From positions 1-64,000 of IMG/VR virus record IMGVR_UViG_3300045988_124542: DNA of 64,000 nucleotides; one strand, 5' to 3'. The stretch's first letter is position 1. Each line of letters opens with the position of its first letter. A model generated the notes under the pieces. The model searched no databases. It was not told the DNA's origin and worked only from the letters and a program-made list of their open reading frames with translations. Made by a program: the position numbers and the translations under genes. Of this stretch, positions 1,303 to 56,775 are shown one piece after another. This stretch comes from a virus.

Positions 1303-1444
1303 GCTGAACTTGACGATTTTTCGTCAGATTATAATTTTTTTTCATATTATTTTTAAGCCATCAGACTGAGAAGTTAGGTGGCTTTATTTTTTATGATATG
1401 CTTGATTTTTAACTACCTTTGTCTCATAACAAAAATGTTTTACT

Positions 1445-4400
1445 ATGACATCAACGTGTATTATTAAAAGAGATAATAAAAATAAAGTTGTTTCTGTCTC
1501 TACCAGATCAGGGGACAGGTCTATGTTGTTTGATAAAATAGCATCTATTCCTCTTATGGAGAATAGGGAACGGGCTACTACTGTTTTTAAAACCGTATTT
1601 TCTAATAAGTTCTTAAAGGCTTTTGGTGACTGGAGAAAGAGAGTGCCTATCAACAAACCGGCTTATAATAAGGTAAAATCCAACATCGATCTTATTCCGG
1701 AAGCCTATAGAGAAAGGGTGCTGGATAAGGCGTCTAAGATGAGTAACCCTGTTCTTGTGTCAAAATCAGATGCACCTTATGAAATCCAAGAATCGGGCTT
1801 TGGATTTTACAGCCAAGATCTGGGTGATAATATTATGTTGGTGGATGCTATGGTTCCGTCAAGTATTTCCGTACCGGAAGGACCTGGAATAGACGCCGGG
1901 CAGTATCTACAAGATGCTATATCTTCGGACTTTACTCCCGTATCTATGGTACAGGATAAGGGTGTTAATTATATGGTTATAAAAGACGGTCTTAAGATAT
2001 TTAGCCCAGAAGAGTTACCACAGACAGATTCTAATCCTGTGGGTGTAACGTATCAGACCGGAGAGCCTCGTTTGTTTTTCATGAATGATCGTAATCAATT
2101 ATTTGAAGATTACGGAGAAGCTCTTCGCTCTGGCGGGAATGATATCAGAATAGGATTCTTATCAGGCATCGTTCAAGAATCTACCGTGGATGGAGTGGCA
2201 GACATTACTTACAAGGCTGGAAAGTATGTTCTTAATAATCCCAAGTCTTTTATACCGGTCATGACCGCTTCTGCTTCTACTTCTTTATCAACAAAAGGCG
2301 GTATAATTAACTACCTTATAAAGAAAGGTCTTTTGTCCGGATCCAAGATATTCGATCCGGAAACAAGAAGCTATTATATTACAGGAGAAGGACATACAGG
2401 ACAAATTAGACTTTTCAATTCAGCCTTATCCTACACTGAGCTCCGTAATCATTTTGGTTCCGATGTTTCCATGAACGACCAGGGTATGATAACCATAAAT
2501 TCATTGGATAATAGTAAGGTAACTATGAGACTCGCCACCGGAGGAACAGAAAGAGTTAGCAAGGAGCAGATAAAGAGCGATCTTAAGTCTGGAAGATACA
2601 ATGAATTGGATGCTAAATACGATCACTTTGATGCGCTTGTAGTTTCATTTATATTAGAAGACAATGATCTTTATGCTGATACTAAAGCTAAGATAGTATC
2701 GGATTATAGCCAAGAGGAACGTAATCAACGAAATTCTATTGTTGAGATACTGAAAACGCTGGGCGTTAGTGTCGTTGGCATGACCGATTATATAGAGAAG
2801 TACCAAACTAAATACGGACACGAACCTTCTGCTAAGGCATTGGCGGATATTGCCAATAACGTAATAGCAGTCGGTGAAGATGCTACTTTGTCTGACTTAG
2901 TAGAAGAAACAGCACACTTTCTCGTAGAGGCGTACAGAGATCAGAATGCTGTTGAATCTGTTTTGCAAGATGTAGAAGGCACTGAAGAATGGAATCAGTA
3001 TGCAGGTCAGTATTATAATACATACGGTAAGGTATATGAAGGCTCTGAACTTGATAATGCTGTTAGGAGAGAAATTCTTGGAAAGATCCTCGCCAGGGAG
3101 ATGCAGACCGGCACAGCACAGGCGCCGGTAGAGCCCACCTCCTTCCTGGGGCGCGTCCGGCAGCTTCTCTCTGGAATTGTAAACTGGCTTAAATCAGCTT
3201 TATCAACCCAAAGACAGGATTTGAATAACGTTATTAAAAATATTCGTGATCTTGCTATTACCGACATAGATAAAGGATTTGATACTTCTCTTTTGAAGGA
3301 TAATGATTTTACATTATATTCCCTTTCTTCTATGAAGAAGAACAAGTTTCTTGAGTCTAAGATCCGGGCATTGAGAAAAACGTTAAGAGACTTACGTCAG
3401 ATAAGCTCTGATAGGGCTGTAACTACGTCTATGACCCTTGCCCAGCTTAAGACCATAGAAGATAAGATAAATAAAGTAGAGACCGAAATAGACAAGAATG
3501 AGATGGCGGCTGCCATGAACAGCATGATCTCTACAGCCGAAGCTCAGGTCAGATACTTAAGCAATGTGGTGAACACCATCCTTCATGGTGATACCAAAGA
3601 CGGTAAGCTTCATTTCAATACCAATGATCGAAAGAACGTAGATATTATCAACAATCAGGTTCTTCCGATCATGAACGATCTTCGAGGATATATCCGTAAC
3701 AGAAGTACCGAATTTGATGAGCGTGAAAAGCAGGATTATACAAATAGGATCAATACCGTCATTGCCGACATCAACGGTATTCAGTCTGATATTAAATCAG
3801 TACAAGATCTTGATGAAAGTACGTTGCTTGACAAGTTAATGAACGAACTTCATGTGCCGGCAGATAAGGTAAAGAGAGTAAAAGAGTTCTTTGATAAGGT
3901 TCAACATGATGTGTCCTGGATAAGTAGGTGGTTTGGTATATTAGAACATTCCTCCAGCCCGTTCAATAACGCTCTTGGAGCTATGATTGCCAAAGACAAT
4001 TACAATGCGATGGTGAATGCCCAGCCCGCCATATCCGACTTCCTGGCATATGCTAAAAAGCATGGTTTTAACAAATCTGAATTTGAAAAACTGCTTCAGA
4101 AAGTAGACGGCAAAACTTCTAATTACCTTCGTAGTGCTCTTGATATGGCTAAATACGATCGTAATAAGAAGCTGGCGCAGATGCGAGCGTTTGCGACTGC
4201 CATGAACATAGAGATATCAGAAGAAGAAATTGGTGATGTGGTTGACAATAACCGTAATTACGTATTTAAAAGAGAAGTAGTTGACAAGGATGGAAATACG
4301 GTTACTGAAAACGCTAAATTCAAACCATCGTCTGATAGAGTTAATACCGATATTTTTACCATCGAGCAGGAAAAGATTTATACAGAACAGATGGAAAAGT

Positions 4401-7400
4401 GGGATGCTGAAAATTCGGAACTGGAATTTAGCGAAAGTTATGCCACAAGAATGGAATCCATATACAAAAAGGCTGAAGAAGAATTAGGGTATCCGGTTTC
4501 TCAAACAACCAAAGAATACCTTAATGCTCTATCCAGGCAAAAACGGATATTGAGGCAGCCTTTTATTGATAGCGGTGGTAATTTTGATGAGGTTGCCTAT
4601 TTTAAAAGCAGCAATTACGAAGAAGAAGGACTGCTTCGTAAACAACGTAAGGAAGCAGCTTCAGAATACATATATGTAGGAACCAGGAGAGTGGAAAAAA
4701 CCGGCGACCAACTTAAGATGGCTAAAGAAATACAAGCTATAAATGAAGTTTGGAGAAAGGAATCAAATAATGTTACCAATGCCGTATCAGAATCGTTTTT
4801 GCAAAAATTAAGAACGATTCAGAGCGAGTCGGGAGGAGAAGCTGCGCTGAAGACACTTATGTTGGGAGGTCACCTGTCGTTCAATGATCGGTTTTGGAAT
4901 GAAGTAGAATCGGAACAGTCGGCGCGTACCGAATCAAATAACAAGGCTTCGTATCTTAAAATGGCGCATGATATCATTGGTTCTACGACAAGTGATAGAG
5001 ATGCGACTGACGTGGATTCGATTGTGAAAGATATAGAAAAAAATAAGGCCATTATCAAGGAAATAATCGGAAACAACCGAGATGTGGCTGATATCGGAGA
5101 AATTAACGAAGCGACATTTACCTTATCTGAAAGAGATGCTTTTAGGGCCGCATCTGAAGCTATTGAAGCTGATTACGCTATTTTAATAGATTATGCTAAG
5201 ATGGTGGGTCTTGAAGATATTGATAAGTACCTTACTAAAAGCAGTAAGGCCGAAAACGAAGTAAATCAGTCTTATTTAAATGCTCTTGCTGACTCCAAGG
5301 AAGTGGAATGGAAGTTCGTACAACGTCATACTACGGCGAAGAAAGCAAAAAGGATTCAGGCTTTAAGGGATAAGCTGTTTAAGGCTGCTGATAACCGATA
5401 TCTGTTTACCGTATCTGAAACCAACTACCTGTCAGAAAAGCTTGGTATAAGCAAAGAATTAGACGGTAGAGATTTCAGGAATGCTGTTAATGCTAAGATG
5501 GCCAGCTTGTTTTTAAATAATACAAGAGAAGAGGGTGTAGAAGAAGCTAATGCTATTGTTAATGAATTTGCCAGGGGCCAGGTCTTTTCCTACTATAAAC
5601 GCATGGCGCCTACCGGATATGCGGCTATGATCGACAAAATAGGTCGAGGTGAGATAGATGTGGCGCAGATGGTTAAGGACGTGCAAAACGGTACATCCAC
5701 CCAAGATTATGGCATGAACATATCGTACCTGTCTTTCGATCCTGCAAGGGCATGGGTGGCTGAATCTGAAGCCGAAAATAACGGCCGTAATCCTGATTAT
5801 GTAAAAGATCATGGGTATGGTCATCGAATGCCTAAGAAAAGCCTGTATCGTGATGAATCTTATTTCAATGACTTTGGTATCAAGTATGATGCTGACGGTA
5901 ATGAAGTTGCTACTAAAAACGTAGAGCAGTGGAATATGATTCAAAAACTCAAGGAAATAAAAAGACAATCCCTTGATCTATACAAAGAGCAGAGCCCGAA
6001 CCTGTATGCTATTCCACAGATATCAAAACAAGATATAGAACGTATAGAAGGATTGGGTATTAACTTCAAAAATACGGTTCGTAATTTTGTATCAGATCTG
6101 TGCCTGGACAGAGTAGACGATTCTTTATACGGTAAAACCAGGCAAGGAGAAGTGTATGATCCGGAAGACAGACTTAGGTCTATACCTAAATACTACATAT
6201 ATGAATTGGAGAACCAAGATGATGTATCTCACGATTTTGGCTACTCTTATTCGATGCTTATGATGCAGTCATCGTTATACAACGAAAAGCAGAAGTCTAT
6301 AGAGCTCGCTCAAGGACTGGAGCAGATGTTACTGAATAAACAATTTGAAGGTGGTAAAAAGGCTGAAGCAACCCAAGCATATCAGATGTTCAGGGACTTC
6401 TTCAACGATCATTATTATGGCATTAGGATGAACACCAAAAAACTTACGGTGAACATCGGAGGATATACGGTAGACCTTACAAGAATTATGATGGCTGTTG
6501 AAAGATTTATGTCGGTCATGAACTTGGCACTGTCCCCGTTTGTGGCAGCTACCGGCGCCTTAACAGGTCATATCAACCTCATCATGGAATCTGCCGTAGG
6601 ACAGTATATAAGTAAAGATTCCCTTAAATACGCATCGGCTGAATTTTCACGCCTTGCTCCATCTTGTATAGCAGAAACCGGAGACATAGATAGGAAAAGC
6701 AAATTATATGTCATAGGTGAGAGAATGGGGATATTCAATATCCGAAATCGTATGTATGGTGCCGGATACAATAGAGTGGCCAGGACCTTAATGCGTTCAC
6801 CTATGTATGCTTTTATGGAAATCCTGAACTACCCTCTTGATCCGCAGGTTATGATTGCTACTATGGACAATGTTCGTTATTACAAAGGTCGGTTCTACAC
6901 GTTCCAAGATTTCAAGATGGAAAAAGAACGCAATAAAGAACAGAGTACCATAAAAAGAGAATGGAATGCATTAAAAGATCGTACTTTATGGAGTATGGTA
7001 GACGTCGTGGATGGGAAGGTGGTTGTAAAGCCAGGATCGGGTGTTACTGTTGAGGAAGTTGAAACCCAGATGGCTATAACCAGGAATCAAGTCCGTAGCT
7101 TGTCGCAGATATGTAACGGATCTTTGAATGAAGAAAACCGAACTGCCGCATCGCGCAACTGGATAGCCAGGTTCATGACCGCCCACCGAGGATGGTTGGT
7201 GCTGGCGGCTCAACGTCTGTGGAAAAGACGTGGCTTCAATTTCCAAACAATGCAAGAAGAGGAAGGGTTGTCAATTACGTTAAAGAATATGATAGCCAAA
7301 ACATTTAGCCTGGCTTCCGAGTCTGGTATGAAAAACATCATAGATGCCTGGAACGAAAATAAAGACAATATGAATGAGGTAGAAAAAACTAATCTCAAAC

Positions 7401-7867
7401 GCCTCAGTGTCTATGCCGGCACGTTCCTTATCATGCAAGCCGTATCCATGCTTCTTGCCGGATGGCGTGATGATGATGAAAACGAAGAAAGTTGGCTTAC
7501 TCAATTTGGATCTTACGTTGGATTCAGAACCATAAACGAAATAGCTTCACAGATGCCGTTTATTATGGAGCTTAACGTTGTAGATATCATTAACGACCCG
7601 TTTGTTATGGGAAGGAAGCTGAAGGATCTTACCGATCTTAGGAATTATTCACTTGATAAAGTAACATCCGGTACATACAAAGGAGAGTCTAAGCTATTTA
7701 GGCAACTCGCCAAACAGACGTTTATCAAACAATGGTATAATATCAAGACGCCGGAAGACGTAGCGCGCGCCTATAATTGGTGGCAGCAGACAAACAACAA
7801 GTCAATGATGTTCTTCATCGGCGCTACTCCTGATTCGGAAGGAGACGATGACGTTAGTTACAAATAG
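1445..7867 (+). CDS. giant 2140-aa protein, probable virion/ejected (tail or cargo) protein; function unassigned
   Basis: Uninterrupted 6.4 kb ORF; long charged coiled-coil-like central region; C-terminal hydrophobic helices (LALSPFVAATGALTGHINLIM, VYAGTFLIMQAVSMLLAGW) reminiscent of tape-measure/ejection proteins; no polymerase DxDGD motif seen. Confidence 0.85.
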   Translation: MTSTCIIKRDNKNKVVSVSTRSGDRSMLFDKIASIPLMENRERATTVFKTVFSNKFLKAFGDWRKRVPINKPAYNKVKSNIDLIPEAYRERVLDKASKMSNPVLVSKSDAPYEIQESGFGFYSQDLGDNIMLVDAMVPSSISVPEGPGIDAGQYLQDAISSDFTPVSMVQDKGVNYMVIKDGLKIFSPEELPQTDSNPVGVTYQTGEPRLFFMNDRNQLFEDYGEALRSGGNDIRIGFLSGIVQESTVDGVADITYKAGKYVLNNPKSFIPVMTASASTSLSTKGGIINYLIKKGLLSGSKIFDPETRSYYITGEGHTGQIRLFNSALSYTELRNHFGSDVSMNDQGMITINSLDNSKVTMRLATGGTERVSKEQIKSDLKSGRYNELDAKYDHFDALVVSFILEDNDLYADTKAKIVSDYSQEERNQRNSIVEILKTLGVSVVGMTDYIEKYQTKYGHEPSAKALADIANNVIAVGEDATLSDLVEETAHFLVEAYRDQNAVESVLQDVEGTEEWNQYAGQYYNTYGKVYEGSELDNAVRREILGKILAREMQTGTAQAPVEPTSFLGRVRQLLSGIVNWLKSALSTQRQDLNNVIKNIRDLAITDIDKGFDTSLLKDNDFTLYSLSSMKKNKFLESKIRALRKTLRDLRQISSDRAVTTSMTLAQLKTIEDKINKVETEIDKNEMAAAMNSMISTAEAQVRYLSNVVNTILHGDTKDGKLHFNTNDRKNVDIINNQVLPIMNDLRGYIRNRSTEFDEREKQDYTNRINTVIADINGIQSDIKSVQDLDESTLLDKLMNELHVPADKVKRVKEFFDKVQHDVSWISRWFGILEHSSSPFNNALGAMIAKDNYNAMVNAQPAISDFLAYAKKHGFNKSEFEKLLQKVDGKTSNYLRSALDMAKYDRNKKLAQMRAFATAMNIEISEEEIGDVVDNNRNYVFKREVVDKDGNTVTENAKFKPSSDRVNTDIFTIEQEKIYTEQMEKWDAENSELEFSESYATRMESIYKKAEEELGYPVSQTTKEYLNALSRQKRILRQPFIDSGGNFDEVAYFKSSNYEEEGLLRKQRKEAASEYIYVGTRRVEKTGDQLKMAKEIQAINEVWRKESNNVTNAVSESFLQKLRTIQSESGGEAALKTLMLGGHLSFNDRFWNEVESEQSARTESNNKASYLKMAHDIIGSTTSDRDATDVDSIVKDIEKNKAIIKEIIGNNRDVADIGEINEATFTLSERDAFRAASEAIEADYAILIDYAKMVGLEDIDKYLTKSSKAENEVNQSYLNALADSKEVEWKFVQRHTTAKKAKRIQALRDKLFKAADNRYLFTVSETNYLSEKLGISKELDGRDFRNAVNAKMASLFLNNTREEGVEEANAIVNEFARGQVFSYYKRMAPTGYAAMIDKIGRGEIDVAQMVKDVQNGTSTQDYGMNISYLSFDPARAWVAESEAENNGRNPDYVKDHGYGHRMPKKSLYRDESYFNDFGIKYDADGNEVATKNVEQWNMIQKLKEIKRQSLDLYKEQSPNLYAIPQISKQDIERIEGLGINFKNTVRNFVSDLCLDRVDDSLYGKTRQGEVYDPEDRLRSIPKYYIYELENQDDVSHDFGYSYSMLMMQSSLYNEKQKSIELAQGLEQMLLNKQFEGGKKAEATQAYQMFRDFFNDHYYGIRMNTKKLTVNIGGYTVDLTRIMMAVERFMSVMNLALSPFVAATGALTGHINLIMESAVGQYISKDSLKYASAEFSRLAPSCIAETGDIDRKSKLYVIGERMGIFNIRNRMYGAGYNRVARTLMRSPMYAFMEILNYPLDPQVMIATMDNVRYYKGRFYTFQDFKMEKERNKEQSTIKREWNALKDRTLWSMVDVVDGKVVVKPGSGVTVEEVETQMAITRNQVRSLSQICNGSLNEENRTAASRNWIARFMTAHRGWLVLAAQRLWKRRGFNFQTMQEEEGLSITLKNMIAKTFSLASESGMKNIIDAWNENKDNMNEVEKTNLKRLSVYAGTFLIMQAVSMLLAGWRDDDENEESWLTQFGSYVGFRTINEIASQMPFIMELNVVDIINDPFVMGRKLKDLTDLRNYSLDKVTSGTYKGESKLFRQLAKQTFIKQWYNIKTPEDVARAYNWWQQTNNKSMMFFIGATPDSEGDDDVSYK

Positions 7868-9516: not shown

Positions 9517-9997
9517 TAGCTTTATGACCTTCCCTATCTGTGAAAACTAAACCAATACCTTCTATAATATATCCTACTACAGGAGCTTTGTCAAATTCCT
9601 CCTTCGTAGCCCAAGTGGCATTATCAGGCATCAGATCCTTAAATGCATCCGAAACATCACCTTGGCACCAGCAGTTATTTGATACAACAATGCCTTTCCC
9701 TTCGATATTGATATACATTTTTCTTCCACCGCATCCAAGGCTGTTCCATCCGCTCGGTACGTTTTCCACCATAGGCTTAAGCACCCAGCTTTCACCGTCT
9801 ATCCTAACCCATCCTGGATCGTCTTTGTGCTTGTCGTACATATTTTGCCAAAAAGAGCATTCGTAGCACCACCCCCTGTCTTCCATGACAGTTCTTATCT
9901 CACACCTTTCAAATCCATCTGCATCCATCGTGTGCGGAGAATGAGGCTGGTGAGGAGTGCCACATTTTGGACATACGAGTTTTAAATTATTTTCCAT
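9509..9997 (-). CDS. zinc-ribbon protein, paralog family member A
   Basis: N-terminal CPKCG...C..C motif; conserved blocks IDGESW and DLMPDNATW shared with ORF 29824-30267. Confidence 0.6.
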   Translation of the reverse strand: MENNLKLVCPKCGTPHQPHSPHTMDADGFERCEIRTVMEDRGWCYECSFWQNMYDKHKDDPGWVRIDGESWVLKPMVENVPSGWNSLGCGGRKMYINIEGKGIVVSNNCWCQGDVSDAFKDLMPDNATWATKEEFDKAPVVGYIIEGIGLVFTDREGHKANA

Positions 9998-34064: not shown

Positions 34065-34871
34065 TCATTTATTTGTTTCACTTATGAAATTGACAACATC
34101 CTTTAGATATCCTTCTGTCATCTCTATGAAATTAACACAATCTAATTTGCTTAACTTGTAAATCAATGCCGGATTGTGTATTATGGCTATAATTTGTGTT
34201 TGTGGTTTATGGAATGACAATACATTATAAATTTGCATTATGTTATCAATATCAAGATTCCTGTCTGGCTCATCCATGAGAACCGTGTATTCAAAACTGC
34301 TTTTTGTTAATGCTATGCGGTTTCTTTTATAATACTTCAACAGGTTATCAATTCTTTTAATCCAAAACGCATTTGATTTTTTCTTGTATTCTACAAGATC
34401 TTGTATTGGAAATGTATAATCCTTTTGACCGAACATTAAATTGAAAAGTGATTCCAATGATAACACCACTTTCTCTCCATAAGATCTTCGAATATTATTC
34501 ACATACAAATCTAAGTTGCTGATGTTTTTCAATACGCTATCTCGATTCATCTCCGCCGATGGCAATAAACGGAATACTTTCCCTGCATAATCGGATGATA
34601 TGTCAATCCCATCAAAAACCTTATCATCGTCATCAAATATAGGTGGAAAATCCAGTGCCTCGGTCGGCATTTCAGAGCACATGGATTTCTCGCATAACGC
34701 ATACATTGATATGATGTTAAGCAAGGTTGATTTTCCGCTACCGTTTTTACCTATAATTACATTCACTCCTGGCTTGAAAATAAATTCTCTGCCATTTTCA
34801 AATGCTTCTATATCCGAAACATATTCAAATGGAGTTTTTGTATTGTCTTTTATTTTTACTGATGTTATCAT
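34065..34871 (-). CDS. ABC-type (AAA_15/21-like) ATPase
   Basis: Walker A GKNGSGKST, Walker B/D-loop VLMDEPDRNLD, H-loop IIAIIHNP; no nuclease domain fused. Confidence 0.7.
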   Translation of the reverse strand: MITSVKIKDNTKTPFEYVSDIEAFENGREFIFKPGVNVIIGKNGSGKSTLLNIISMYALCEKSMCSEMPTEALDFPPIFDDDDKVFDGIDISSDYAGKVFRLLPSAEMNRDSVLKNISNLDLYVNNIRRSYGEKVVLSLESLFNLMFGQKDYTFPIQDLVEYKKKSNAFWIKRIDNLLKYYKRNRIALTKSSFEYTVLMDEPDRNLDIDNIMQIYNVLSFHKPQTQIIAIIHNPALIYKLSKLDCVNFIEMTEGYLKDVVNFISETNK

Positions 34872-35719: not shown

Positions 35720-35875
35720 AATATATCTACTTAATACTGTGAATTATATTTTTTTTCTCTCTCCCACTATCTTCCCCTATAGGATTATTCCATCCGTATT
35801 TTACAGCCGTAGCTCTAAATAGAGGAAGTCTATAAAATCTATAATCATTCTCAAGATGAGCATATACTGTTGATT

Positions 35876-36538
35876 TCATTTCAGTTCTTTAATTAAAGCA
35901 TCCGCATATATTACAGCTAATTCAGCCGCCTTATCACACGCTTCCAATATTAATTCACCGTGAGGTCCACGTCCTGATACGGATGTGATCGGAAGCATGG
36001 TTTTTGCCATCTCGTATCTACGTTGTTCCCAATCTACATGGGTGCTACACGGTTCTTGATTGACCTGTATATATCTTCCTTCAATATTAGAAGATCTTAA
36101 TATTTCCGCATTCTCTTCGCCGAATGCAACCAGAATAGACCCACATCCTGGACTTTCACCTATTGTTCCATCTTCTCTGTGGAATTTTATCCTTCCTTTC
36201 ATGAACAATATACCTTTTGCTTTCGGGAATACAACATCCTGAAACATCTTATTGTCAAGACGATTAAAAAGAAGAGCTATTCCGTTATTGTGCTCTACCA
36301 TACGAGTAATAAAATGCTCTATAGTCGGTCTTGAATAAGGTGGGTTTAACCATACCCTTCCTTCCCATTTTTGTTTTAATCCATCTTGCTCTTTGTTATA
36401 CATAACCCTGGCTGTCCTCCATAACGGACGCATAGGCGCACATGGATCTAAATCAAATTCCCCTAAAGCGTCTATAATTTCTTTAGGTGTGTACCATTCA
36501 TCTGTACTGTTTTTAGATTTCTCAAATGATGTATTCAT
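35876..36538 (-). CDS. DNA N6-adenine methyltransferase (phage Dam-like, NPPY type)
   Basis: catalytic motif IV WLNPPYSRP. Confidence 0.75.
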   Translation of the reverse strand: MNTSFEKSKNSTDEWYTPKEIIDALGEFDLDPCAPMRPLWRTARVMYNKEQDGLKQKWEGRVWLNPPYSRPTIEHFITRMVEHNNGIALLFNRLDNKMFQDVVFPKAKGILFMKGRIKFHREDGTIGESPGCGSILVAFGEENAEILRSSNIEGRYIQVNQEPCSTHVDWEQRRYEMAKTMLPITSVSGRGPHGELILEACDKAAELAVIYADALIKELK

Positions 36539-36556
36539 ATATCTATGTTTTATAAG

Positions 36557-37219
36557 TTAATCCCATCCTCCAGTAGTGTACAAAGATACATCTTCCTCCT
36601 CTACGTTTACACCTTTAATAGCCTGTAGAAGTTTTTTCTTTGTCTCTCGGCACATATTGTAACCATATCCTTTATACCGATATGAGCGCTCCCATGTGCT
36701 TACTGGAAAAGGAATATTTTCGTCAATGACCAGCCTCTTCATATGAAGATGTTCGAAGAATTTCTCATGATAGAGTAGTTTGTACTCGTATGCTACTATA
36801 CTTGCAGATGAGAATGGAAAATAATCATCTTCCTTTTCTTCGTATTTAGGCTCCTTATAGTAGGCCATTTTTGCTACAGTAAAGTCGAAGCTCCTGAGAA
36901 TCTCTTCTGGCTTTCCAAACTCTGACTCTATGAACTCTATCCATGCCTTTTCTCCCTCTTTCTGGAACGCACATACCTTCTCATTTCTGTACTTAAATTT
37001 CCATCCTTCTTTCTGATGTTTTTCATCATTGAACAAATCAACAGCTTCCTGAAAATCGTCTTCGCTTTCAAAGAAAATATCAATATCTTTTACTCTTTCT
37101 CCGGAAAGGATATTCTTAAAACATCCACCAGCTATGAACCCCTTGTGACCTTCCATATATTTGTCAAGCCATCTTATTTGCCAGAAATTATCTGGAGTAT
37201 CTATTATAAAATTGTTCAT
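36557..37219 (-). CDS. Pol-beta superfamily nucleotidyltransferase, class-II CCA-adding-head-like
   Basis: IAGGCFKNILSGERVKDIDIFF = hG[GS]x9-13DhD, closely resembling GGaVRD...DvDh of CCA-adding/poly(A) polymerase heads; possible third Asp in SFDFT. Confidence 0.5.
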   Translation of the reverse strand: MNNFIIDTPDNFWQIRWLDKYMEGHKGFIAGGCFKNILSGERVKDIDIFFESEDDFQEAVDLFNDEKHQKEGWKFKYRNEKVCAFQKEGEKAWIEFIESEFGKPEEILRSFDFTVAKMAYYKEPKYEEKEDDYFPFSSASIVAYEYKLLYHEKFFEHLHMKRLVIDENIPFPVSTWERSYRYKGYGYNMCRETKKKLLQAIKGVNVEEEDVSLYTTGGWD

Positions 37220-37237
37220 ATTGTTTGTATTTTACTG

Positions 37238-37492
37238 TCACCAAGCGAGATAAAAATTCCGCTTTACTATAACACAGTGGGTATAGTTATCCAGATCAAC
37301 CCCATTTTCTTTGAATGTATCCAGAACCCTCTTTTCCACATGTTTCAATTTTACTATTATTCCCTTCCTAAACTCTTCTATTAACTTCCCGTTACATTCA
37401 ATAGGCCCAATAAAACAGTACCTATTTGAAGAACTGTCACATATGCAATATGTATCACACCCAAACATATTGCTTAAAATATCCTCGTTCAT
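37238..37492 (-). CDS. hypothetical protein
   Basis: 84-aa ORF. Confidence 0.4.
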   Translation of the reverse strand: MNEDILSNMFGCDTYCICDSSSNRYCFIGPIECNGKLIEEFRKGIIVKLKHVEKRVLDTFKENGVDLDNYTHCVIVKRNFYLAW

Positions 37493-37526
37493 AATTTCTC
37501 TATTGTTTTAATAATGATACTCTTTA

Positions 37527-37826
37527 TTATATTTCTTCTTCACACCATTCATCCTCCCCTATCAATTGTTTATAATATTCGCTATGCTCTATCGCCAAAA
37601 CATCTTGAGACAAATATTCTTGTAGCTCCAATTTGCGCATTGGAGCAAGGCAATCCAGATGCTTAGTGTCCATTTCTTGCCTATCTTCATCTACCCACAC
37701 CAACGTGTCGTATCCATAACATTCTGGACATTGGTCAGCTCCACGTGGAAGAAGCATTTGTACTCCACATTGAGTACATCTCACCCAGTCTCCATGCTGC
37801 ACCCCTTCGTATGTTCTTGTTTTCAT
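37527..37826 (-). CDS. hypothetical zinc-ribbon protein
   Basis: CTQCG...CPEC. Confidence 0.45.
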   Translation of the reverse strand: MKTRTYEGVQHGDWVRCTQCGVQMLLPRGADQCPECYGYDTLVWVDEDRQEMDTKHLDCLAPMRKLELQEYLSQDVLAIEHSEYYKQLIGEDEWCEEEI

Positions 37827-37828
37827 AT

Positions 37829-38023
37829 TTATTGTTTATCATTTATAACATTTACTTCTTCGCTCCACAAATGTCTCTTATATATCGGAGTGATGCCGAT
37901 CAGAATACCACTATCTTCGCCCCAATACTGAAGTGTTTTAGGCTCAATTTTATGATGCAATTCTTGTATTCCTCCTTTGTTTCTGTCATAAGGAGAAAAA
38001 TCAGATAATTTTACCGTTTTCAT
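37829..38023 (-). CDS. hypothetical protein
   Basis: 64-aa ORF. Confidence 0.35.
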   Translation of the reverse strand: MKTVKLSDFSPYDRNKGGIQELHHKIEPKTLQYWGEDSGILIGITPIYKRHLWSEEVNVINDKQ

Positions 38024-38754
38024 TTTTCTGGATTTTCAGCAGTTCCTAAAAGATATTCATTGCCCTCAAAAGGAATGCAATAAACATACACTGTTCCATT
38101 CAAGCATTCATATTTAATCTCCCCATCCTGATCGTCTGTAATTGTTCTTATGAATAAACTGGCCTCCCAATTATCGTCCTCATAATATTTTGCTAACACT
38201 TTGTCAAACGGCTTAAACTCATATTTCGTCCTTTCTTCAATTCCGAAGAAGCGTTTTAGATATTCTTTTGCTTTAGGATTTTTGCTTTTCTTTAACGCTT
38301 TAATCATCTTCTGTTTTTCCGAATCTGTTGCAAGTCTATAACATTCTATGTGGTTTTCGTGTGCAGCCAAATTATCCGATATATTAAGACTTTTTCCCGC
38401 TGCAAGACTCGCATAAAAAGATGTTAAATATTTCCCATGCGTATTTAAAATAAAAATATAACTTCCATCTTTGCTGCTTAACACATCTCCATCTTTAAAT
38501 GTAGTATATTCCGGGACTTCAAGAAGGAGGCGATTTTCGCTGCTAAATGCTTTTCCTGTAGCAGAAAACCAATCTGCCGATACAGAAATAGAATGAATTA
38601 CAACCAATAACGGACAAATTGACGAATTGTCTTCATATACTATTTCTGCTCTATTTCGTCCTTTCTCTGTCACAATCTGACCTACTCTTTCCCCTATGTT
38701 TATTTTTTTCGCCGTTTCTAAATCAAACGGGATTGTTACCATTTTATATTCCAT
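38020..38754 (-). CDS. hypothetical protein, tandem paralog 1
   Basis: shares IPFDL.TA.KI N-terminus and FKPF..VL...W...LF....DG.KYECL.G....CIP.EGNE.LLGT C-terminus with 38759-39550. Confidence 0.6.
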   Translation of the reverse strand: MEYKMVTIPFDLETAKKINIGERVGQIVTEKGRNRAEIVYEDNSSICPLLVVIHSISVSADWFSATGKAFSSENRLLLEVPEYTTFKDGDVLSSKDGSYIFILNTHGKYLTSFYASLAAGKSLNISDNLAAHENHIECYRLATDSEKQKMIKALKKSKNPKAKEYLKRFFGIEERTKYEFKPFDKVLAKYYEDDNWEASLFIRTITDDQDGEIKYECLNGTVYVYCIPFEGNEYLLGTAENPEK

Positions 38755-38758
38755 AATC

Positions 38759-39550
38759 TTATTTGTTTTTATTGGTTCCTAAAAGATGTTCGTTCCCTTC
38801 GTATGGGATACACTGACTAAATCCTACCCCTCCTAAGCATTCGTATTTATTATCTCCTACTGATTCTCTGGAAAATAGATGCAATTTCCACCTCTCTTGG
38901 TTAGTTCTTCTCACCAGCACTCGTTCAAATGGTTTGAAGTCACGTTTCGGCATCTCATCTAATAGATACTCATATTCACTTAAATATCGTTTTATTATAT
39001 CTATTTTTCTACTGTCTTCGGCTTTTATAATCTTTTCTGCTAAAAATTTCTTCTCTTCTTCTATAGCCTTTCTTACATGCCGTTTTTTATCTTCATCATA
39101 CACATCAGTCCATAATCCGCTATGATCAAACTTAATATCTCCAGATGTTACCATTCCACATATACTTCCCATTACCCCTTTGGTAATAAGTCCATCATAT
39201 ATAAATTGACATCCTTTAGTGCTTGTTAATACATCTCCTTTCTTAAAATACGCTCCAGCCTCTACCCTCAATTCCAGAGTGGTGCCGCCAATAATACAAC
39301 CTTCCGTGTTGGCATATATAGCACTTATCCCATATCCATCTTTTTTTACAAAAAGCAAATTATAAGGACCTGCACAGTCTTTCGACTCATATACAAATTC
39401 TATTTCAATATTATCAATTAATACCGAACCTTCTATTTCTCCGCTTTTAATTTTTCTCGCCGTATTTAAATCAAACGGAATAATAATTGCATTTTCCATA
39501 TTTTTCTTGTTTTTAGTTGTTATAAAATAAGATGGGTTACTTACGCCCAT
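38759..39550 (-). CDS. hypothetical protein, tandem paralog 2
   Basis: see paralog 1. Confidence 0.6.
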   Translation of the reverse strand: MGVSNPSYFITTKNKKNMENAIIIPFDLNTARKIKSGEIEGSVLIDNIEIEFVYESKDCAGPYNLLFVKKDGYGISAIYANTEGCIIGGTTLELRVEAGAYFKKGDVLTSTKGCQFIYDGLITKGVMGSICGMVTSGDIKFDHSGLWTDVYDEDKKRHVRKAIEEEKKFLAEKIIKAEDSRKIDIIKRYLSEYEYLLDEMPKRDFKPFERVLVRRTNQERWKLHLFSRESVGDNKYECLGGVGFSQCIPYEGNEHLLGTNKNK

Positions 39551-39789
39551 CCCAGTTGCTTTGCAATACTTTCCATCTCACTATACGCAATACGATGACA
39601 TCCGGCTGTCAGTATATCGTTTTCATACCGGTTTATGCTCCACTTATTGCCACCCACGTCCTCTACCAGGCCATGCCGGAACTGGCCTCCCCGGTGCAAC
39701 AGTGACACCATCTGCCACATCCTTCTGGCTTCTTCTATCCCGATTTTTATTTGTTTGCTCGTTTCAATAATTCCCCCTTTTATGCGCAT
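39541..39789 (-). CDS. hypothetical protein
   Basis: 82-aa ORF. Confidence 0.4.
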   Translation of the reverse strand: MRIKGGIIETSKQIKIGIEEARRMWQMVSLLHRGGQFRHGLVEDVGGNKWSINRYENDILTAGCHRIAYSEMESIAKQLGWA

Positions 39790-39855
39790 CCAAGCATTTA
39801 CGTCAGCACAATCAATAAAATAAGGTGATTATATACAACTTTACACCATCTATAT

Positions 39856-39901
39856 AAAACAGAAGCCGGATAATGATTAACGTATATCCGGCTTCTGTTT
39901 T
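39856..39901. terminator. perfect 17-bp-stem hairpin (AAAACAGAAGCCGGATA...TATCCGGCTTCTGTTTT) flanked by A/T runs
   Basis: read directly; lies between two minus-strand genes, immediately downstream of the transposase-associated small ORF. Confidence 0.6.
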
Positions 39902-39907
39902 ATATGG

Positions 39908-40096
39908 TTAAAATTCTTTTTCGTTACCACCTTTTTTAGAGGTGGTTTTATCAAAAAGAGGGTCGTTAGGATCTGTTTTGGGATTATAGCTAAATATACT
40001 TTTAGCTATTCTCTTCATATCCTTCTCTAATTTTCCACTTTTACTACTTCTGATCGTAGTAGTGGTTGATATTGTGAATTTCTTATTTTTTTTCAT
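39908..40096 (-). CDS. hypothetical small basic protein, coupled to transposase gene
   Basis: 62 aa; start overlaps transposase stop by 4 nt. Confidence 0.4.
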   Translation of the reverse strand: MKKNKKFTISTTTTIRSSKSGKLEKDMKRIAKSIFSYNPKTDPNDPLFDKTTSKKGGNEKEF

Positions 40097-41016
40097 GCCG
40101 TAATTTTCTTTAGTTGTGAATACCTTAATCGTCGTTTGGTATTCTGCAAAAATACATCGAATCTTTCAGATTCCGATAGATGTTTCGTGTTATATCTGAA
40201 AGATTCGCAATCTACATATCTTTGAAGATGTTTTCTCGACACCCAGAAATGGGTTCCAGAAATCATTTTCTTCAAATGGCTCCAATATCCTTCGATTGTG
40301 TTTGTTGATCTTCTGCCTATTACATACGCTCCCTTTTTGTGATATACTTTTTGATGATCAAACTTTTCTTTGTTGATCCCGTTATACGCATACCATTCGT
40401 CAGAATATATGGTAGAATTAGGATGAACGGTATTGTATATCAAAGGAAGTAAGGTTTTACCTTTTGTGTCTGTAACGACATAAGCGACAACAAATCCTTC
40501 TCGTTGGAGTGTCCCAAACACAGGGGTTTTATCTTTTAAAGATCTCCCCTGTGCATCTTTAACTTTATCCTTACTATGTCTATTCTTGTTTTTGCCACCA
40601 ATATAAGTTTCATCCACTTCAATCTCGCCTTTCAAACACGGCTCTTTTATTTCAATACTAAAACAATTATGAATACGTTGAAGCATAAACCAAGCCGTTT
40701 TCTGTGTTACTCCCACGATTTTAGACAACTGTAAAGATGATACTCCTCTTTTCATTTCAACAACAAAATAACAAGCCAACATCCATTTTCGTAATGAGAC
40801 TTTCGAATTTTCAAAAATCGTTCCTGTACGAACATTGAAATATTTACCCGTGTTTTTACACTTGTATCTATTTCCTTTGCATTTATACACCTTAGATTCC
40901 GGATCAAAAGGAGAAACAACGTGATCTCCCCACCTTTCTTTTTCAAGAAAGGTTATACACGCTTGCTCATCAGGGAACAATTTTGAAAATTCGGGAAGTG
41001 ATTTAAAATCGAACAT
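40093..41016 (-). mobile_element. IS1595-family (ISXO2-like) DDE transposase gene
   Basis: N-terminal zinc ribbon + HTH (KCKGNRYKCKNTGKYF...TQKTAWFMLQRI) and hallmark GEIEVDETYIGGK DDE block; terminal inverted repeats not identified by eye. Confidence 0.8.
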
Positions 41017-41183
41017 ACTTCTTATCTTTATATTGGATTATAAAAATACAAAAATATATTCATATAACCAACTAAAAATCAATTAAATTCATCGAATATC
41101 TGATTTTGAATTATTTTTTTTGTTGTTAAATTTCTAATTCTTTTCTATTTTTGAGGATTGTCTAACTTAATTGTAATAATATC

Positions 41184-41360
41184 ATGGAAAAGAAAATAGA
41201 ACACAAAAAAGACAAAGTGGAACTTTACAAAGACAAAAACGATAAATGGCGATGGAAAAGAATAGCTCCAAACGGAGAAGTAGTTGGTGCTTCTACCCAA
41301 GGATATGCCAATAAAAGTTACTGTAAAGAGAATGCAAGGAGAAATGGGTGTGATATATAG
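41184..41360 (+). CDS. DUF1508/YegP-like small protein (not in ORF track, 58 aa)
   Basis: MEKKIEHKKDKVELYKDKNDKWRWKRIAPNGEVVGASTQGYANKSYCKENARRNG matches the YegP-repeat pattern. Confidence 0.6.
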   Translation: MEKKIEHKKDKVELYKDKNDKWRWKRIAPNGEVVGASTQGYANKSYCKENARRNGCDI

Positions 41361-41366
41361 ACAATG

Positions 41367-41531
41367 CTAATCATTTGGAATAATCCCCACTACTTCTTCT
41401 GTTGTAGCTCTTTGTTTAACAAAATCTTCTGCTTCATTCCAAGAAGTAGCCCATATTTCACCAGCGTATTTTCGCCCGTTGATTTCAAATTCTGTCAAAA
41501 ATTTCTTTTGTTTTTCTTCTTTTGTTTTCAT
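41367..41531 (-). CDS. hypothetical small protein (54 aa, not in ORF track)
   Basis: MKTKEEKQKKFLTEFEINGRKYAGEIWATSW...; more protein-like than the overlapping + strand ORF 41364-41564. Confidence 0.35.
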   Translation of the reverse strand: MKTKEEKQKKFLTEFEINGRKYAGEIWATSWNEAEDFVKQRATTEEVVGIIPND

Positions 41532-41575
41532 AATTACAATTTTAAAAAGTTAATAATTAATTGATTTATAAAAAG

Positions 41576-41607
41576 AAAGCGGTGATAAACTAAGTTGCCA
41601 CCGCTTT
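41576..41607. terminator. hairpin AAAGCGGTG...CACCGCTTT + T-run, bidirectional
   Basis: read directly; just downstream of lipoprotein gene stop (41629). Confidence 0.5.
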
Positions 41608-41628
41608 TACTGCTTACTATTTTGTATA

Positions 41629-42024
41629 TTATTGTATCCTGTACATTGAAAAGTCTTCAAAATCTCCAGATACACAATCAAGTTTCAGCCAACCTTCTGA
41701 CACCTTTACATCATAAACAATAGGTGGCTCAGGGTCACTATCAAATACAATGACTAATTTCATTGTATTTTTATCAAAAGAGTATGTGAAAGGATCTGGG
41801 CTTTTCTTTTTGCCTTCATTGTAATATACAGTCATTACGCCTGTATCGTCATTATAAAATGTGAGTTCGAAAAATTCATCTGCGGGGAATTGCTCTCCCC
41901 ATGAACCTATTAATATGCTGTTATTGTCATTATTCACATTATCATCGTTACACGAAAATGTGAATAAAAGTAGCAAGGTTAATAATATATGTAGTACTTG
42001 TTTCATGTTATTGTTAAAATTCAT
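41629..42024 (-). CDS. lipoprotein (Bacteroidota-type signal peptide/lipobox)
   Basis: MKQVLHILLTLLLLFTFSCNDDN... Confidence 0.6.
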   Translation of the reverse strand: MNFNNNMKQVLHILLTLLLLFTFSCNDDNVNNDNNSILIGSWGEQFPADEFFELTFYNDDTGVMTVYYNEGKKKSPDPFTYSFDKNTMKLVIVFDSDPEPPIVYDVKVSEGWLKLDCVSGDFEDFSMYRIQ

Positions 42025-42718
42025 ATCCGACCTTTATACTAAATCCGTTCATGTCACCACTTCCATCTCCCCATTCTTCATCAAATGATACCTTTTGTAT
42101 AGAATATCCTATACCTAAATTAACAGCTTGTTTTTTAGTGGTCATAAACCGTACGCCAATAAAAGGGTTACAATACAATCCACCTTTTTTTGCATGTCTT
42201 GGTGCTTCTTTTGTATTGAACTTATACCCTATTCTTAATGCAATAAAAGGAGATATTGGACCATTCAAGGCATATCCTCTCACATCCGCAAATACAGGTA
42301 TGCTTACTGTTGAATAATCGGTCATATAGTGTATGCCGGTTCCACCTCCTACAAATAAATATTGATTGATTTGGCTTCCATATGTAAAATATAATTCTGG
42401 GCCTTTGTATCCACCTGCCCAGTATCCGAGATCAATCATAAATCTACTCCCTGTCAAATCGTACTTTTCATTGGATATTTTAAATGGAATTTTAGATTCT
42501 TTCTCTTCTTTGGTTATTTTACTGATATCTTCCATAGGGTACACAAACGTACTACCATCAGAAGTGCGAATAGTAATTTGCTTGTCTGGTATCTGCTCGA
42601 TAATAACCCCTTTTATAACACTTCCATTTTTTAAATGAATAGCTTCAACCATTTTGTTCTGTGAGTAAGCGCATACACTACCCAATAGAACAACTAACAA
42701 TAATAGATACTTTTTCAT
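42014..42718 (-). CDS. outer-membrane beta-barrel protein (Bacteroidota OMP-like)
   Basis: signal peptide MKKYLLLLVVLLGSVCAYSQ, alternating aromatic/Gly beta-strand pattern, C-terminal ...VGYEF. Confidence 0.65.
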   Translation of the reverse strand: MKKYLLLLVVLLGSVCAYSQNKMVEAIHLKNGSVIKGVIIEQIPDKQITIRTSDGSTFVYPMEDISKITKEEKESKIPFKISNEKYDLTGSRFMIDLGYWAGGYKGPELYFTYGSQINQYLFVGGGTGIHYMTDYSTVSIPVFADVRGYALNGPISPFIALRIGYKFNTKEAPRHAKKGGLYCNPFIGVRFMTTKKQAVNLGIGYSIQKVSFDEEWGDGSGDMNGFSIKVGYEF

Positions 42719-43213
42719 ATGAAATAATTTTGCTCTTTCTGCCTCCTTCGAAAGATTAACAAAAAAAAGAAGCGTGGAGACTATTGGATACTACCACATT
42801 GAGGTCTTGGACTACCCTTCGCACAATAGTAAACAATAGCCCCACGCCTTATGTCAGTATACTATTATCCCTCTTGTATAATCAGAATGCGTATACAACA
42901 ACATAGGCGTAGGAGCTGTATGTCTATTATCTTGTGCGAATGAAAGTGTCCAAGTTTCAATGCAAGATAATATCTTAACGCTTCTACGTCTTTATTCTAA
43001 TACGTGAGGGCAAAGATAGTTATTCTATCTAATATTTTAAAACGGCTTAAAAGGATTTAATTTGATGTAAAATGAATATTGGGAATTTTAACAGTTCGTA
43101 TTTTTGCATAAACAACAAAATATCTAAGATCATGAACAAATGCAAAAAGCCATCAAGAAAAACAGCCAGTAAAGCAGGCAAGTTATTAAGAAAGAAGATA
43201 TCTTCCAAAGATG

Positions 43214-43558
43214 TTAAAACTCTTGCAGGTTACACTTTACAAGCCGCTTCCCGTCGTGGAAAAAGTAAGAGTGGTTGCCAAAAGAAAGGAAAATAAGTTC
43301 TTTAATACAAGCTTTTGGTATGGTCATTATACCAGAAGCTTGTTCTAATGTATTGGAATTACCAACAGCATAATGACCAGCTACAGATATAGATCTCTCA
43401 TTTTCATGTACAACAATACCATAGCTCTCTATTTCTGATATATCTGTTTCGTAATCCTCCAGATCTACCCATGTTCTTTCTGATAGGTTGGAATCTATCC
43501 ACTTAACTAATACCCGCTTGTTTAAAAGCGATTCTTTTTTATGTCTATTCTTTTTCAT
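43214..43558 (-). CDS. hypothetical protein
   Basis: 114-aa ORF. Confidence 0.4.
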   Translation of the reverse strand: MKKNRHKKESLLNKRVLVKWIDSNLSERTWVDLEDYETDISEIESYGIVVHENERSISVAGHYAVGNSNTLEQASGIMTIPKACIKELIFLSFGNHSYFFHDGKRLVKCNLQEF

Positions 43559-43672
43559 AACTTGTTATATTGATTTTTTTAGTAAACGAAAAGAGATTGT
43601 GCCAGCATTTTGACACAATCTCAATTATATGGGAATAATACTAAGGAAAAGTGTAAAGTGGTATATAATTAC

Positions 43673-43957
43673 CTAATTTAAAAGCCTATACCAGCCTTTT
43701 CCCTGACATGTCTCAAAATTCCATTTTCCAACAAGCCTTCTGTATCCTCTTACTGGTATTTTCACTATTTCCCTTGGCACGATTTCAATATACTTTCCTT
43801 CTCCGATTGGTATAGTCATATTACCTGCCTCTTCCGTGCAAAAGTATTCTATTTCAGATGCCATGTCTTTATATACATAGAACCGGTATAGGTTCCCGTC
43901 AGGGTCTACCCGATCCATGTAATATAATATCACTTTGTCTACTTTTATCGTTTTCAT
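43673..43957 (-). CDS. hypothetical protein
   Basis: 94-aa ORF. Confidence 0.4.
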   Translation of the reverse strand: MKTIKVDKVILYYMDRVDPDGNLYRFYVYKDMASEIEYFCTEEAGNMTIPIGEGKYIEIVPREIVKIPVRGYRRLVGKWNFETCQGKGWYRLLN

Positions 43958-44298
43958 TCCTTTATTCTACTTATCTTTAAATTGTTATTCTTACAGTATT
44001 CCTTCAGCCAACTATCCGTTAGATAACGATTGACTCTATCATATTTCTTTTTCGAACCCTTGCTCCAGAATTTCCATTCGTTTGTGATATCATACCCATA
44101 TTTATCAAACCAATAGATATAATACACTACGTTACCGTATAAATCTACTCTTTTTCTTTCCTGTATGACTACCTCGTAAGGTATCTTCTTGTCTCTTTTC
44201 TCCATCTTTGTCCTCCTTTCTTGAATAAAAAAAAACGGCACCTGTCTTCGCAGACCAGTGCCGGTAACTAACTCGCATGGAAAACTACTTAACCTCAA
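43954..44298 (-). CDS. hypothetical protein
   Basis: 114-aa ORF. Confidence 0.4.
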   Translation of the reverse strand: MRLSSFPCELVTGTGLRRQVPFFFIQERRTKMEKRDKKIPYEVVIQERKRVDLYGNVVYYIYWFDKYGYDITNEWKFWSKGSKKKYDRVNRYLTDSWLKEYCKNNNLKISRIKE

Positions 44299-56396: not shown

Positions 56397-56413
56397 TGTC
56401 TTACTTTTTTTAG

Positions 56414-56485
56414 AGGCTTGTGGCGGAATCGAACCGCCCTACGAGATTTTGCAGATCCCTGACTAAACCACTCATCCAACAAGCC
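56414..56485 (-). tRNA. tRNA-Cys (GCA)
   Basis: cloverleaf folded by hand: acceptor GGCTTGT/ACAAGCC, T-arm GGCGG-TTCGATT-CCGCC, anticodon loop CTGCAAA; no encoded CCA. Confidence 0.7.
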
Positions 56486-56488
56486 ATG

Positions 56489-56560
56489 TAGCCCATGCCT
56501 GAATCGAACAGGCAACTTTTGATTAGGACTCAAGGGTTTTATCCGTTAAACTAATGGGCC
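56489..56560 (-). tRNA. tRNA-Arg (CCT), slightly atypical
   Basis: acceptor GGCCCAT/ATGGGCT, T-arm GCCTG-TTCGATT-CAGGC, anticodon loop GTCCTAA; one C.A mismatch in anticodon stem. Confidence 0.5.
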
Positions 56561-56630
56561 ATTTAATGTTTGCTATGTTCACACACCACAAACACTTAGA
56601 TAATTAACACTTTACACAAAATATGTACCG

Positions 56631-56701
56631 TTATCCAAGGAGGATTCGAACCTCCGCTAACAGAACCAAAATCTGTTGTGCTACCACTACACCATTGGAC
56701 A
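56631..56701 (-). tRNA. tRNA-Gln (TTG)
   Basis: U1-A72 acceptor start typical of bacterial tRNA-Gln, T-arm GGAGG-TTCGAAT-CCTCC, anticodon loop TTTTGGT. Confidence 0.65.
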
Positions 56702-56702
56702 G

Positions 56703-56775
56703 TGGTCCCGGAGGGATTTGAACCCACGATCTCGATGTTATGAGCATCTTGCTTTCACCACTAAGCCACAGGACC
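56703..56775 (-). tRNA. tRNA-Met (CAT) (elongator Met or Ile2 type)
   Basis: acceptor GGTCCTG/CGGGACC, T-loop TTCAAAT, anticodon loop CTCATAA. Confidence 0.65.

Follow-up and report, generated by a model that had tools for sequence, protein, structure and literature searches.

The window analysed here is a stretch of 64,000 nucleotides (nt) of viral DNA (IMG/VR record IMGVR_UViG_3300045988_124542, positions 1 to 64,000). On its minus strand, at 36557..37219, it encodes a protein of 220 amino acids (aa) that belongs to the Gad2 family of nucleotidyltransferases (NTases). The best explanation, to which we give a probability of roughly 0.55, is that this stand-alone NTase is an optional counter-defence or host-interaction enzyme and not a CCA enzyme for the tRNAs of the phage. 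Its family is catalogued (Pfam Gad2, phrog_4400), with the mechanism unsolved. The gene and its parts were located as follows:

36557..37219, minus strand: stand-alone Gad2-family (PF26128 / phrog_4400) NTase, 220 aa, with a head like that of class-II CCA-adding enzymes and poly(A) polymerases (PAPs) and a partial neck
37070..37135, minus strand: motif A, residues 29-50, IAGGCFKNILSGERVKDIDIFF, with the GG turn and the catalytic DxD (D45, D47), placed by invariance and alignments
36860..36892, minus strand: motif B-like segment, residues 110-120, SFDFTVAKMAY, with D112 and the Thr retained and the RR of 'RRDFTIN' gone
36785..36856, minus strand: acidic beta-hairpin insertion of variable length, residues 122-145, seen as gap-rich alignment columns
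36659..36760, minus strand: neck-like segment, residues 154-187, FFEHLHMKRLVIDENIPFPVSTWERSYRYKGYGY, at the class-II pre-D/motif D position

In PHROGs, the protein fell into phrog_4400 (E 3.6e-65, function unknown). PF26128, which the contig annotation names 'Gad2', is precomputed for nearly all homologs listed, both the 76-100% identical proteins and divergent ones. Our Pfam and NCBIfam scans returned no family; the Pfam set used was without PF26128, since the control Gad2 was also unmatched. The Gad2 reference was SPbetaL7 ORF_159, with its sequence taken from Supplementary Table 7 of bioRxiv 10.1101/2023.05.01.538930. BLASTP matched the NTase to it directly (E 6e-8, 21% identity over 170 residues), and hhalign matched the family profile to Gad2 residues 18-179 (98.4%, E 7e-15). 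The PHROG matches were reciprocal: Gad2 hit phrog_4400 (8e-27), and the NTase hit phrog_18122, the group of Gad2 (6e-10). Moreover, the GG turn, the DxD and the motif-B Asp of the NTase aligned with the same Gad2 residues. By sequence comparison, the NTase is thus homologous to the N-terminal half of Gad2, which holds its NTase domain.

Both proteins have the motif set AGG...DxD, FDFT, F..H...R.L and FP...R..(R/K)Y, and the neck segment is conserved in Gad2 as FLKH..RILKFN...FPIVSLLRVQKY. Both are phage-encoded, accessory and found in variable loci. They differ in their PHROG group (phrog_18122 for Gad2, phrog_4400 for the NTase) and in the acidic hairpin at 122-145, which is extra in the NTase and has no counterpart in Gad2 when the two are aligned. 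The two-domain architecture of ~400 aa, with an NTase and a C-terminal domain of ~200 aa, was not found in the window protein. A Foldseek search of viral models returned relatives in many phages, some short (~200 aa) and some long (350-450 aa).

Gad2 of SPbetaL7 is a predicted NTase of 400 aa, and its deletion sensitised the phage to Gabija. A Brevibacillus homolog of 394 aa blocked Gabija and was non-toxic, whereas the SPbetaL7 protein was toxic to cells (Yirmiya et al., bioRxiv 10.1101/2023.05.01.538930 / Nature 2024).

The open reading frame (ORF) of the NTase is a real gene under strong purifying selection. The ratio of nonsynonymous to synonymous substitution rates (dN/dS) was 0.098 for 55 different alleles on contigs of related gut phages, and G31, G32, D45, D47, D112, R178 and Y182 were unchanged in all of them. 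Across 85 diverse homologs the invariant residues were G31, G32, D45, D47, D112, F155, R178 and Y182, with F111 and F113 nearly invariant. The opposite (plus) strand of 36557..37219 had stops throughout. Exact copies of the protein were seen on 130 contigs, and its cluster at 90% identity had 2,997 members. The family profile search returned 2,369 clusters (50% identity) at E ≤1e-3 and 185 at ≤1e-30; among the best 150 clusters listed, the length was mostly about 200-220 aa. A scan for promoters and terminators found fewer promoter-like sites than in shuffled sequence.

The original prediction had described a 220-aa ORF with a head motif like that of CCA enzymes and about half their length. 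This description was accurate: IAGGCFKNILSGERVKDIDIFF corresponds to residues 29-50, and E. coli Cca and PcnB have 412 and 465 aa. A six-frame scan of the window showed no second class-II head motif. Motif A, GGCFKN (31)...DID (45), aligned with GGAVRD...DRD of E. coli Cca, with GGGVRD...DFD of PcnB and with human and bacterial CCA enzymes. The motif B-like segment aligned with RRDFTINSLYY (PcnB) and RRDFTINAMAM (PDB 6ibp). From the pattern RRD(F/L)TxNA, D-F-T alone remains (SFDFTVAK), and both Arg are missing from the family consensus. The Asp of SFDFT had been put forward as a candidate third catalytic carboxylate. This residue, D112, is invariant, but it lines up with the motif-B Asp.

The pre-D position, DL....(I/L)R.(I/V)(G/S).P in Cca and PcnB, reads HLHMKRLVIDENIP in the NTase and is similar. 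Motif D is EDP.R.LR..RF in Cca and PcnB, as against STWERSYRYKGY (174) in the NTase. Both Arg are present (R178, which is invariant, and R181), and the templating Glu-Asp is replaced by Ser-Thr. A search for EDxxR through the whole NTase found none; STWER stands at the equivalent place, with the Arg alone conserved. The residue-level match of the neck segment to motif D is suggested by pattern and spacing, not by superposition. Alignments of the family profile with single sequences of E. coli Cca and PcnB were weak in hhalign (4% and 24%) and were used for motif registration only. In class-II enzymes, the ribose is recognised by RRD, and EDxxR serves as a protein template for the choice of C and A. 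The loss of both motifs argues against CCA specificity.

A search of PDB sequences with the single NTase sequence gave no relevant match. With the 85-sequence profile, the top matches were class-II CCA-adding enzymes and poly(A) polymerases only (E 0.02-0.5); motif A was aligned, and RRDFTINAMAM (6ibp) was paired with FDFTITKFAL. The Pfam PolyA_pol head (PF01743) scored 13.9 bits (E 0.069) and missed the gathering cut-off of 23; one homolog reached 14.7 bits.

An AlphaFold2 model from the 85 diverse homologs had a mean predicted local distance difference test score (pLDDT) of 93.4 and a predicted template modelling score (pTM) of 0.88. It superseded an earlier model from 20 close homologs (pLDDT 74.5), of which the C-terminal half was poor. 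The hairpin insertion appeared in the model as strands 118-128 and 139-151, with lower pLDDT in 131-140. The fold search of the model returned the following entries, given with their scores:

3h37, CCA-adding enzyme: 13.4
4wby: 12.9
3aql, bacterial poly(A) polymerase: 12.4
3wfo: 11.9
9kma: 11.3
1miv: 10.7
TENT5B: 9.8
1ou5: 8.5
2la3, 191-aa stand-alone head-domain protein: 8.2

About 175 residues of the NTase aligned with the head and neck of fold targets that are 344-517 residues long. The protein has the head-domain fold of class-II CCA-adding enzymes and poly(A) polymerases, and class-II CCA-adding enzymes were the best structural matches, in line with the CCA-like head that had been proposed. 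An assignment to the MNT/antitoxin or aminoglycoside NTase families would have spoken against that proposal. The MNT, aminoglycoside (KNTase, Lnu), CD-NTase and MenT-AbiEii families were neither the best structural nor the best profile match; the best match lay elsewhere.

Compared with the class-II CCA/poly(A) enzymes (3h37, 4wby, 3aql, 3wfo, 9kma, 1miv, 1ou5; PF01743), the NTase is half as long. It is without the body and tail, without the RR of motif B and the ED of EDxxR, and without an association with tRNA genes. PDB 2la3 (NP_344798.1), a protein of 191 aa, is titled a stand-alone 'CCA-adding enzyme head domain' protein by its depositors. However, it was 13% identical to the NTase and was not matched by the family profile among PDB sequences even at E 10, which makes it a separate family. 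MenT / AbiEii (DUF1814) and MNT/KNTase proteins resemble the NTase as small Pol-beta-superfamily NTases in phage-host conflict. MenT enzymes are reported to add nucleotides at tRNA 3' ends.

The tRNA genes of the window lie at a single place:

56413..56775, minus strand: four tRNA genes (Met, Gln, Arg-CCT, Cys), found with ARAGORN

It had been stated that all four lack an encoded CCA, and indeed no CCA follows any of them. CCA-less tRNA genes are usual in many bacteria and in most phages, and they are served by the CCA-adding enzyme of the host, which is essential. The further proposal, that the NTase is the phage's own minimal enzyme for tRNA 3'-end maturation or repair, was not borne out, as there are carriers of the gene without tRNAs and siblings with the tRNAs and without the NTase.

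No tRNA genes were found in the carriers Listeria phage P35 and S. thermophilus phages SW9 and 9871 (three complete genomes), nor in the 50,000 bases scanned of the 51,901-base partial-genome record of Bacteroides phage BF503P1. As loci fetched via the NTase would be circular evidence, loci were resampled through the adjoining ATPase gene, and the lineage counts are based on the 73 loci with enough upstream DNA. The NTase was present in 56 of these 73 sibling loci and absent from 17. Several absences were clean, with an 84-aa ORF that otherwise precedes the NTase abutting the DUF3988-like gene (L104, L151, L172).

Loci with the tRNA cluster were retrieved with the exact Met/Gln junction sequence. 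Five NTase-less contigs retained all four tRNAs, again with no CCA encoded (IMGVR_UViG_3300045988_093755, _108509, _113203, _110852 and _117668). No NTase-like gene was found in the loci of these five contigs, a scan that left the remainder of the ~150-kb contigs outside. Co-occurrence with phage tRNA genes, as a functional association with tRNA would give, was not seen. The protein also has neither the tRNA-elbow-binding body and tail domains nor the RNA-binding C-terminus of PAPs (220 aa versus 412-465 aa). The NTase therefore stands outside the tRNA and translation equipment of the phage and is independent of the tRNA genes. Taken as a whole, the original prediction was right about the CCA-like NTase head and very probably wrong about the finishing of the phage's own tRNAs.

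The gene is accessory and optional, and its locus is variable. The features around it were:

35720..43675, no strand assigned: hypervariable accessory island of ~8 kb that holds the NTase, with gene presence from 2/81 to 77/81
37238..37492, minus strand: upstream ORF, 84 aa, 18 nt from the NTase start, no Pfam or PHROG match
35876..36538, minus strand: Dam-type DNA N6-adenine methyltransferase, downstream with an 18-nt gap (PF05869, E 6.8e-15; phrog_111, E 4.7e-42)

The NTase sits within a tight minus-strand array with a gap of 18 nt on each side. The borders of the island are conserved genes, the DUF3988-like and ATPase genes on one side and the ORF at 43676-43966 on the other, in a lineage of ~150 kb that is otherwise conserved. 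The island block was replaced wholesale in three loci (L157, L159, L160) and partially deleted in four (L103, L104, L108, L161). Alternative cassettes consisted mostly of proteins without a family and a TnpB-type gene (L154 3852-5084). Mean identity was 96% for the NTase versus 70-94% for its neighbours. One allele (L036, 6659-7318) carried a nonsense codon, TGG to TAG at Trp13.

The 84-aa ORF was the usual companion of the NTase in this lineage. Among the 73 loci, both genes were present in 50 and both absent in 14; the NTase stood without the ORF in six, and the ORF without the NTase in three. No homolog of the ORF was found beside the NTase gene in eight other phages. The Dam slot had three states: Dam (28/81 related loci), another insert of ~470 nt with a 145-aa unknown gene, or empty. 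An anti-restriction gene such as Dam beside a Gad2-like gene fits a counter-defence hotspot.

In many database gene calls for near-identical phages, the 84-aa ORF and the NTase form a 311-aa fusion, with the stop read as Gln. The stop at the fusion site was TAA or TGA in related loci. Stop-codon recoding was considered and rejected: TGA and TAA stand between the window ORFs, and the read-through statistics were unconvincing.

A locus search with the family alignment gave the same lineage only, so wider contexts were taken from annotated phage records and contigs. With tblastn, the gene was found in 97 phage records, including 54 from Streptococcus, 14 from Bacillus, eight from Maribacter, six from Bacteroides and five from Listeria. 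Its position shifted from phage to phage, within early or accessory regions and beside genes for replication, recombination and nucleotide metabolism. In 9871 it lay between the RecT/exonuclease genes and the single-stranded DNA-binding protein (SSB) gene, in SW9 it followed the primase, and in P35 it was close to the right end of the genome. Its surroundings in Basilisk, Molly and TR-TP1 were small unknown genes, and TR-TP1 also encoded ThyX and an NTP pyrophosphohydrolase nearby. In Bacteroides-type phages, it was placed inside a block of SNF2, carbamoyltransferase, P-loop, two thymidylate-synthase-like and dUTPase genes (L092 2456-8489; L005 38441-42638; L006). No neighbour gene was common across the phages compared, and the hypothesis of a conserved partner was rejected. 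The lack of a shared neighbour and the shifting positions point to an accessory, horizontally mobile gene.

Some further observations concern these settings. The Bacteroides-type block looks like a DNA base-hypermodification pathway. The homolog of Streptococcus phage P0095 (NC_071059.1 30073-30715) was split into ORFs of 108 and 111 aa and is probably a pseudogene, which suggests that the gene is dispensable. A TnpB/Cas12f-like gene (OrfB_IS605 + TNB) was found in a further gut-phage contig, L093 (2965-4080), ~3 kb from the Gad2-like gene; with L154, this makes two cases of an IS605-type element near a Gad2-like gene.

Within the island of the window, an IS1595-family DDE transposase (40093-41016, minus strand; PF12762, E 2.9e-42) was accompanied by a small ORF (39908-40096, minus strand). 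The element was present in two of the 81 related loci and looks recently inserted; the closest bacterial copies of the transposase were only 55-56% identical. In L103, a 100%-identical IS1595 element adjoins the deletion that removed the NTase block. Two adjacent paralogs on the minus strand (38020-38754 and 38759-39550; 32% identity over 250 aa, E 2e-28) had no Pfam or PHROG family and ~70% identity among siblings. Outside the island, a stand-alone ABC/SMC-type ATPase of 268 aa (34065-34871, minus strand) was conserved in the lineage. Its best PADLOC matches were defence ATPase subunits (mad3 at E 1.4e-17, AriA, PtuA, GajA), and the similarity fell largely in the Walker-A region. The left part of the window is dominated by a very long plus-strand ORF (1430-7864, ~6.4 kb, >2,100 aa).

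The residues that the NTase has retained, namely the two-metal DxD (D45, D47), the GG turn, D112 of motif B, and R178 and R181 of the neck, predict catalytic competence; the protein has no tRNA-binding body or tail, no EDxxR as base template and no RR as ribose sensor. Judged from these residues, the protein is very probably an active Gad2-family NTase. It would transfer a nucleotide from an NTP or a deoxynucleoside triphosphate (dNTP) to a hydroxyl acceptor, and by analogy with the fold relatives this acceptor would most probably be a nucleic-acid 3' end. Its purpose would be the blunting of a host defence, as with its homolog Gad2 and Gabija. On that analogy, we put the odds of a counter-defence role at about even, and a specific action on Gabija is rather unlikely.

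In recent work, Gabija acts at phage DNA ends lacking RecBCD activity, and the Gabija-related nuclease P2 Old cleaves tRNA anticodon arms. These two observations make a 3'-end acceptor attractive, if speculative. As a bolder and improbable extension, the short Gad2-like proteins, with their single domain, may form a class of their own among phage enzymes that modify 3' ends, with a stripped-down CCA head that tails or caps a nucleic-acid end. The target may be phage DNA termini, host tRNA or other RNA. The modification may allow evasion of OLD-family defences that sense ends or cut RNA (Gabija, P2 Old) or of other systems, and the C-terminal domain of long Gad2 may add targeting only. If true, this would explain the mechanism of Gad2, and the idea of a tRNA or 3'-end function would be partly right, in defence and not in maturation.

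Several points weigh against the counter-defence explanation. The validated Gad2 proteins have 400 and 394 aa, and the NTase is without their C-terminal ~200 aa; these long forms (394-400 aa) are the sole ones with tested anti-Gabija activity. A split gene, with the C-terminal domain of Gad2 encoded apart, was rejected, as no homolog was found among the 632 window ORFs (phmmer gave no match for Gad2, and BLASTP recovered the NTase alone). A review of February 2026 gives the Gad2 mechanism as unknown (PMC12904381), and our literature search found no paper describing it.

The data from S. thermophilus point in the same direction. The short form is present in about 53 of its phage records. Carriers include STP1, SW16 and, of the 14 Piorkowskivirus genomes listed, at least 11; neither 2972 nor 9874 was among the Streptococcus matches. 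Gabija of S. thermophilus was almost without effect, with a slight reduction of 0.5-1 log on STP1 and SW16 alone (PMC11514479), and both of these affected phages carry the short form, which speaks mildly against protection. The same Gabija occurs in strain ST64987, which hosts the carriers 9871-9873 and is reported to host also 9874, an apparent non-carrier (PMC11514479). From a low-copy vector, the same Gabija protected against all 14 phages tested, of five genera including Piorkowskivirus (PMC12322248). These results are circumstantial and weakly contrary to a strong inhibition of Gabija by short forms. Even SPbetaL7, with full Gad2, was only partially resistant to Gabija.

An enzyme linked to replication, recombination or nucleotide metabolism, with defence evasion as a by-product, is a less probable explanation that we would not expect to hold. 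It could, for example, tail or cap phage DNA ends without a template or take a step in DNA base modification. The gene settings are in its favour: the RecT/exonuclease-SSB position in Piorkowskivirus, the primase in SW9, the Bacteroides-type block with SNF2, thymidylate-synthase-like and dUTPase genes, ThyX and the NTP pyrophosphohydrolase in TR-TP1, and the adjoining Dam methyltransferase in the window. Loss of the RR ribose sensor could also allow the use of dNTPs, and Gabija is now thought to be active at phage DNA ends. However, no partner gene was conserved across phages, the NTase was dispensable in siblings with the same replication genes, and no DNA-acting class-II-type NTase was among the fold-search matches.

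A host-takeover enzyme is quite improbable. It would tail host RNAs for decay in the manner of a poly(A) polymerase, or disable tRNAs, and act as a mild toxin. A Gad2-family NTase of phage Emajogi is toxic, and together with the toxicity of SPbetaL7 Gad2 this suggests action on a cellular target, which fits the counter-defence explanation as well. Yet the EDxxR that selects ATP and CTP is gone, there is no RNA-binding C-terminal region, and the Brevibacillus homolog blocks Gabija without toxicity. A synthase of signalling or decoy nucleotides against CBASS, Thoeris or type III CRISPR immunity, the alternative named in the original prediction, is highly improbable; phage NTases producing competing nucleotides are known, and the CD-NTases were not the best match here.

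The weakest explanation, a minimal CCA-adding or 3'-end repair enzyme for the CCA-less tRNAs of the phage, is largely refuted: it can draw on the best structural matches, the recognisable motifs A and B, the four tRNAs without CCA and the labels 'CCA tRNA nucleotidyltransferase' or 'polyA polymerase' that some databases give to homologs (the deposited copy of phage csAssE-Sib, 95.5% identical, is annotated 'polyA polymerase'), but a role in the phage's own tRNA maturation is very unlikely because five siblings keep the same four tRNAs with no syntenic NTase and the tRNA-binding domains are missing, while four carriers are tRNA-less, the accessory gene is missing from 17/73 siblings, neither EDxxR nor the motif-B RR is present and PolyA_pol stays below threshold. 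Both labels are unjustified by the evidence.

Few anti-defence proteins are predicted to be enzymes, and Gad2 is among them. The window presents the NTase domain alone, strongly conserved yet dispensable, in a very abundant human-gut phage, and the natural sibling genomes with and without the gene are a ready-made comparison. Short single-domain forms amount to thousands of clusters, far above the ~170 long Gad2 homologs of the initial report. Should the single domain prove insufficient for counter-defence, the Pfam label 'Gad2' is over-extended to thousands of proteins with another role. If it suffices, the stand-alone NTase would be a minimal, naturally polymorphic model for Gad2-type enzymes.

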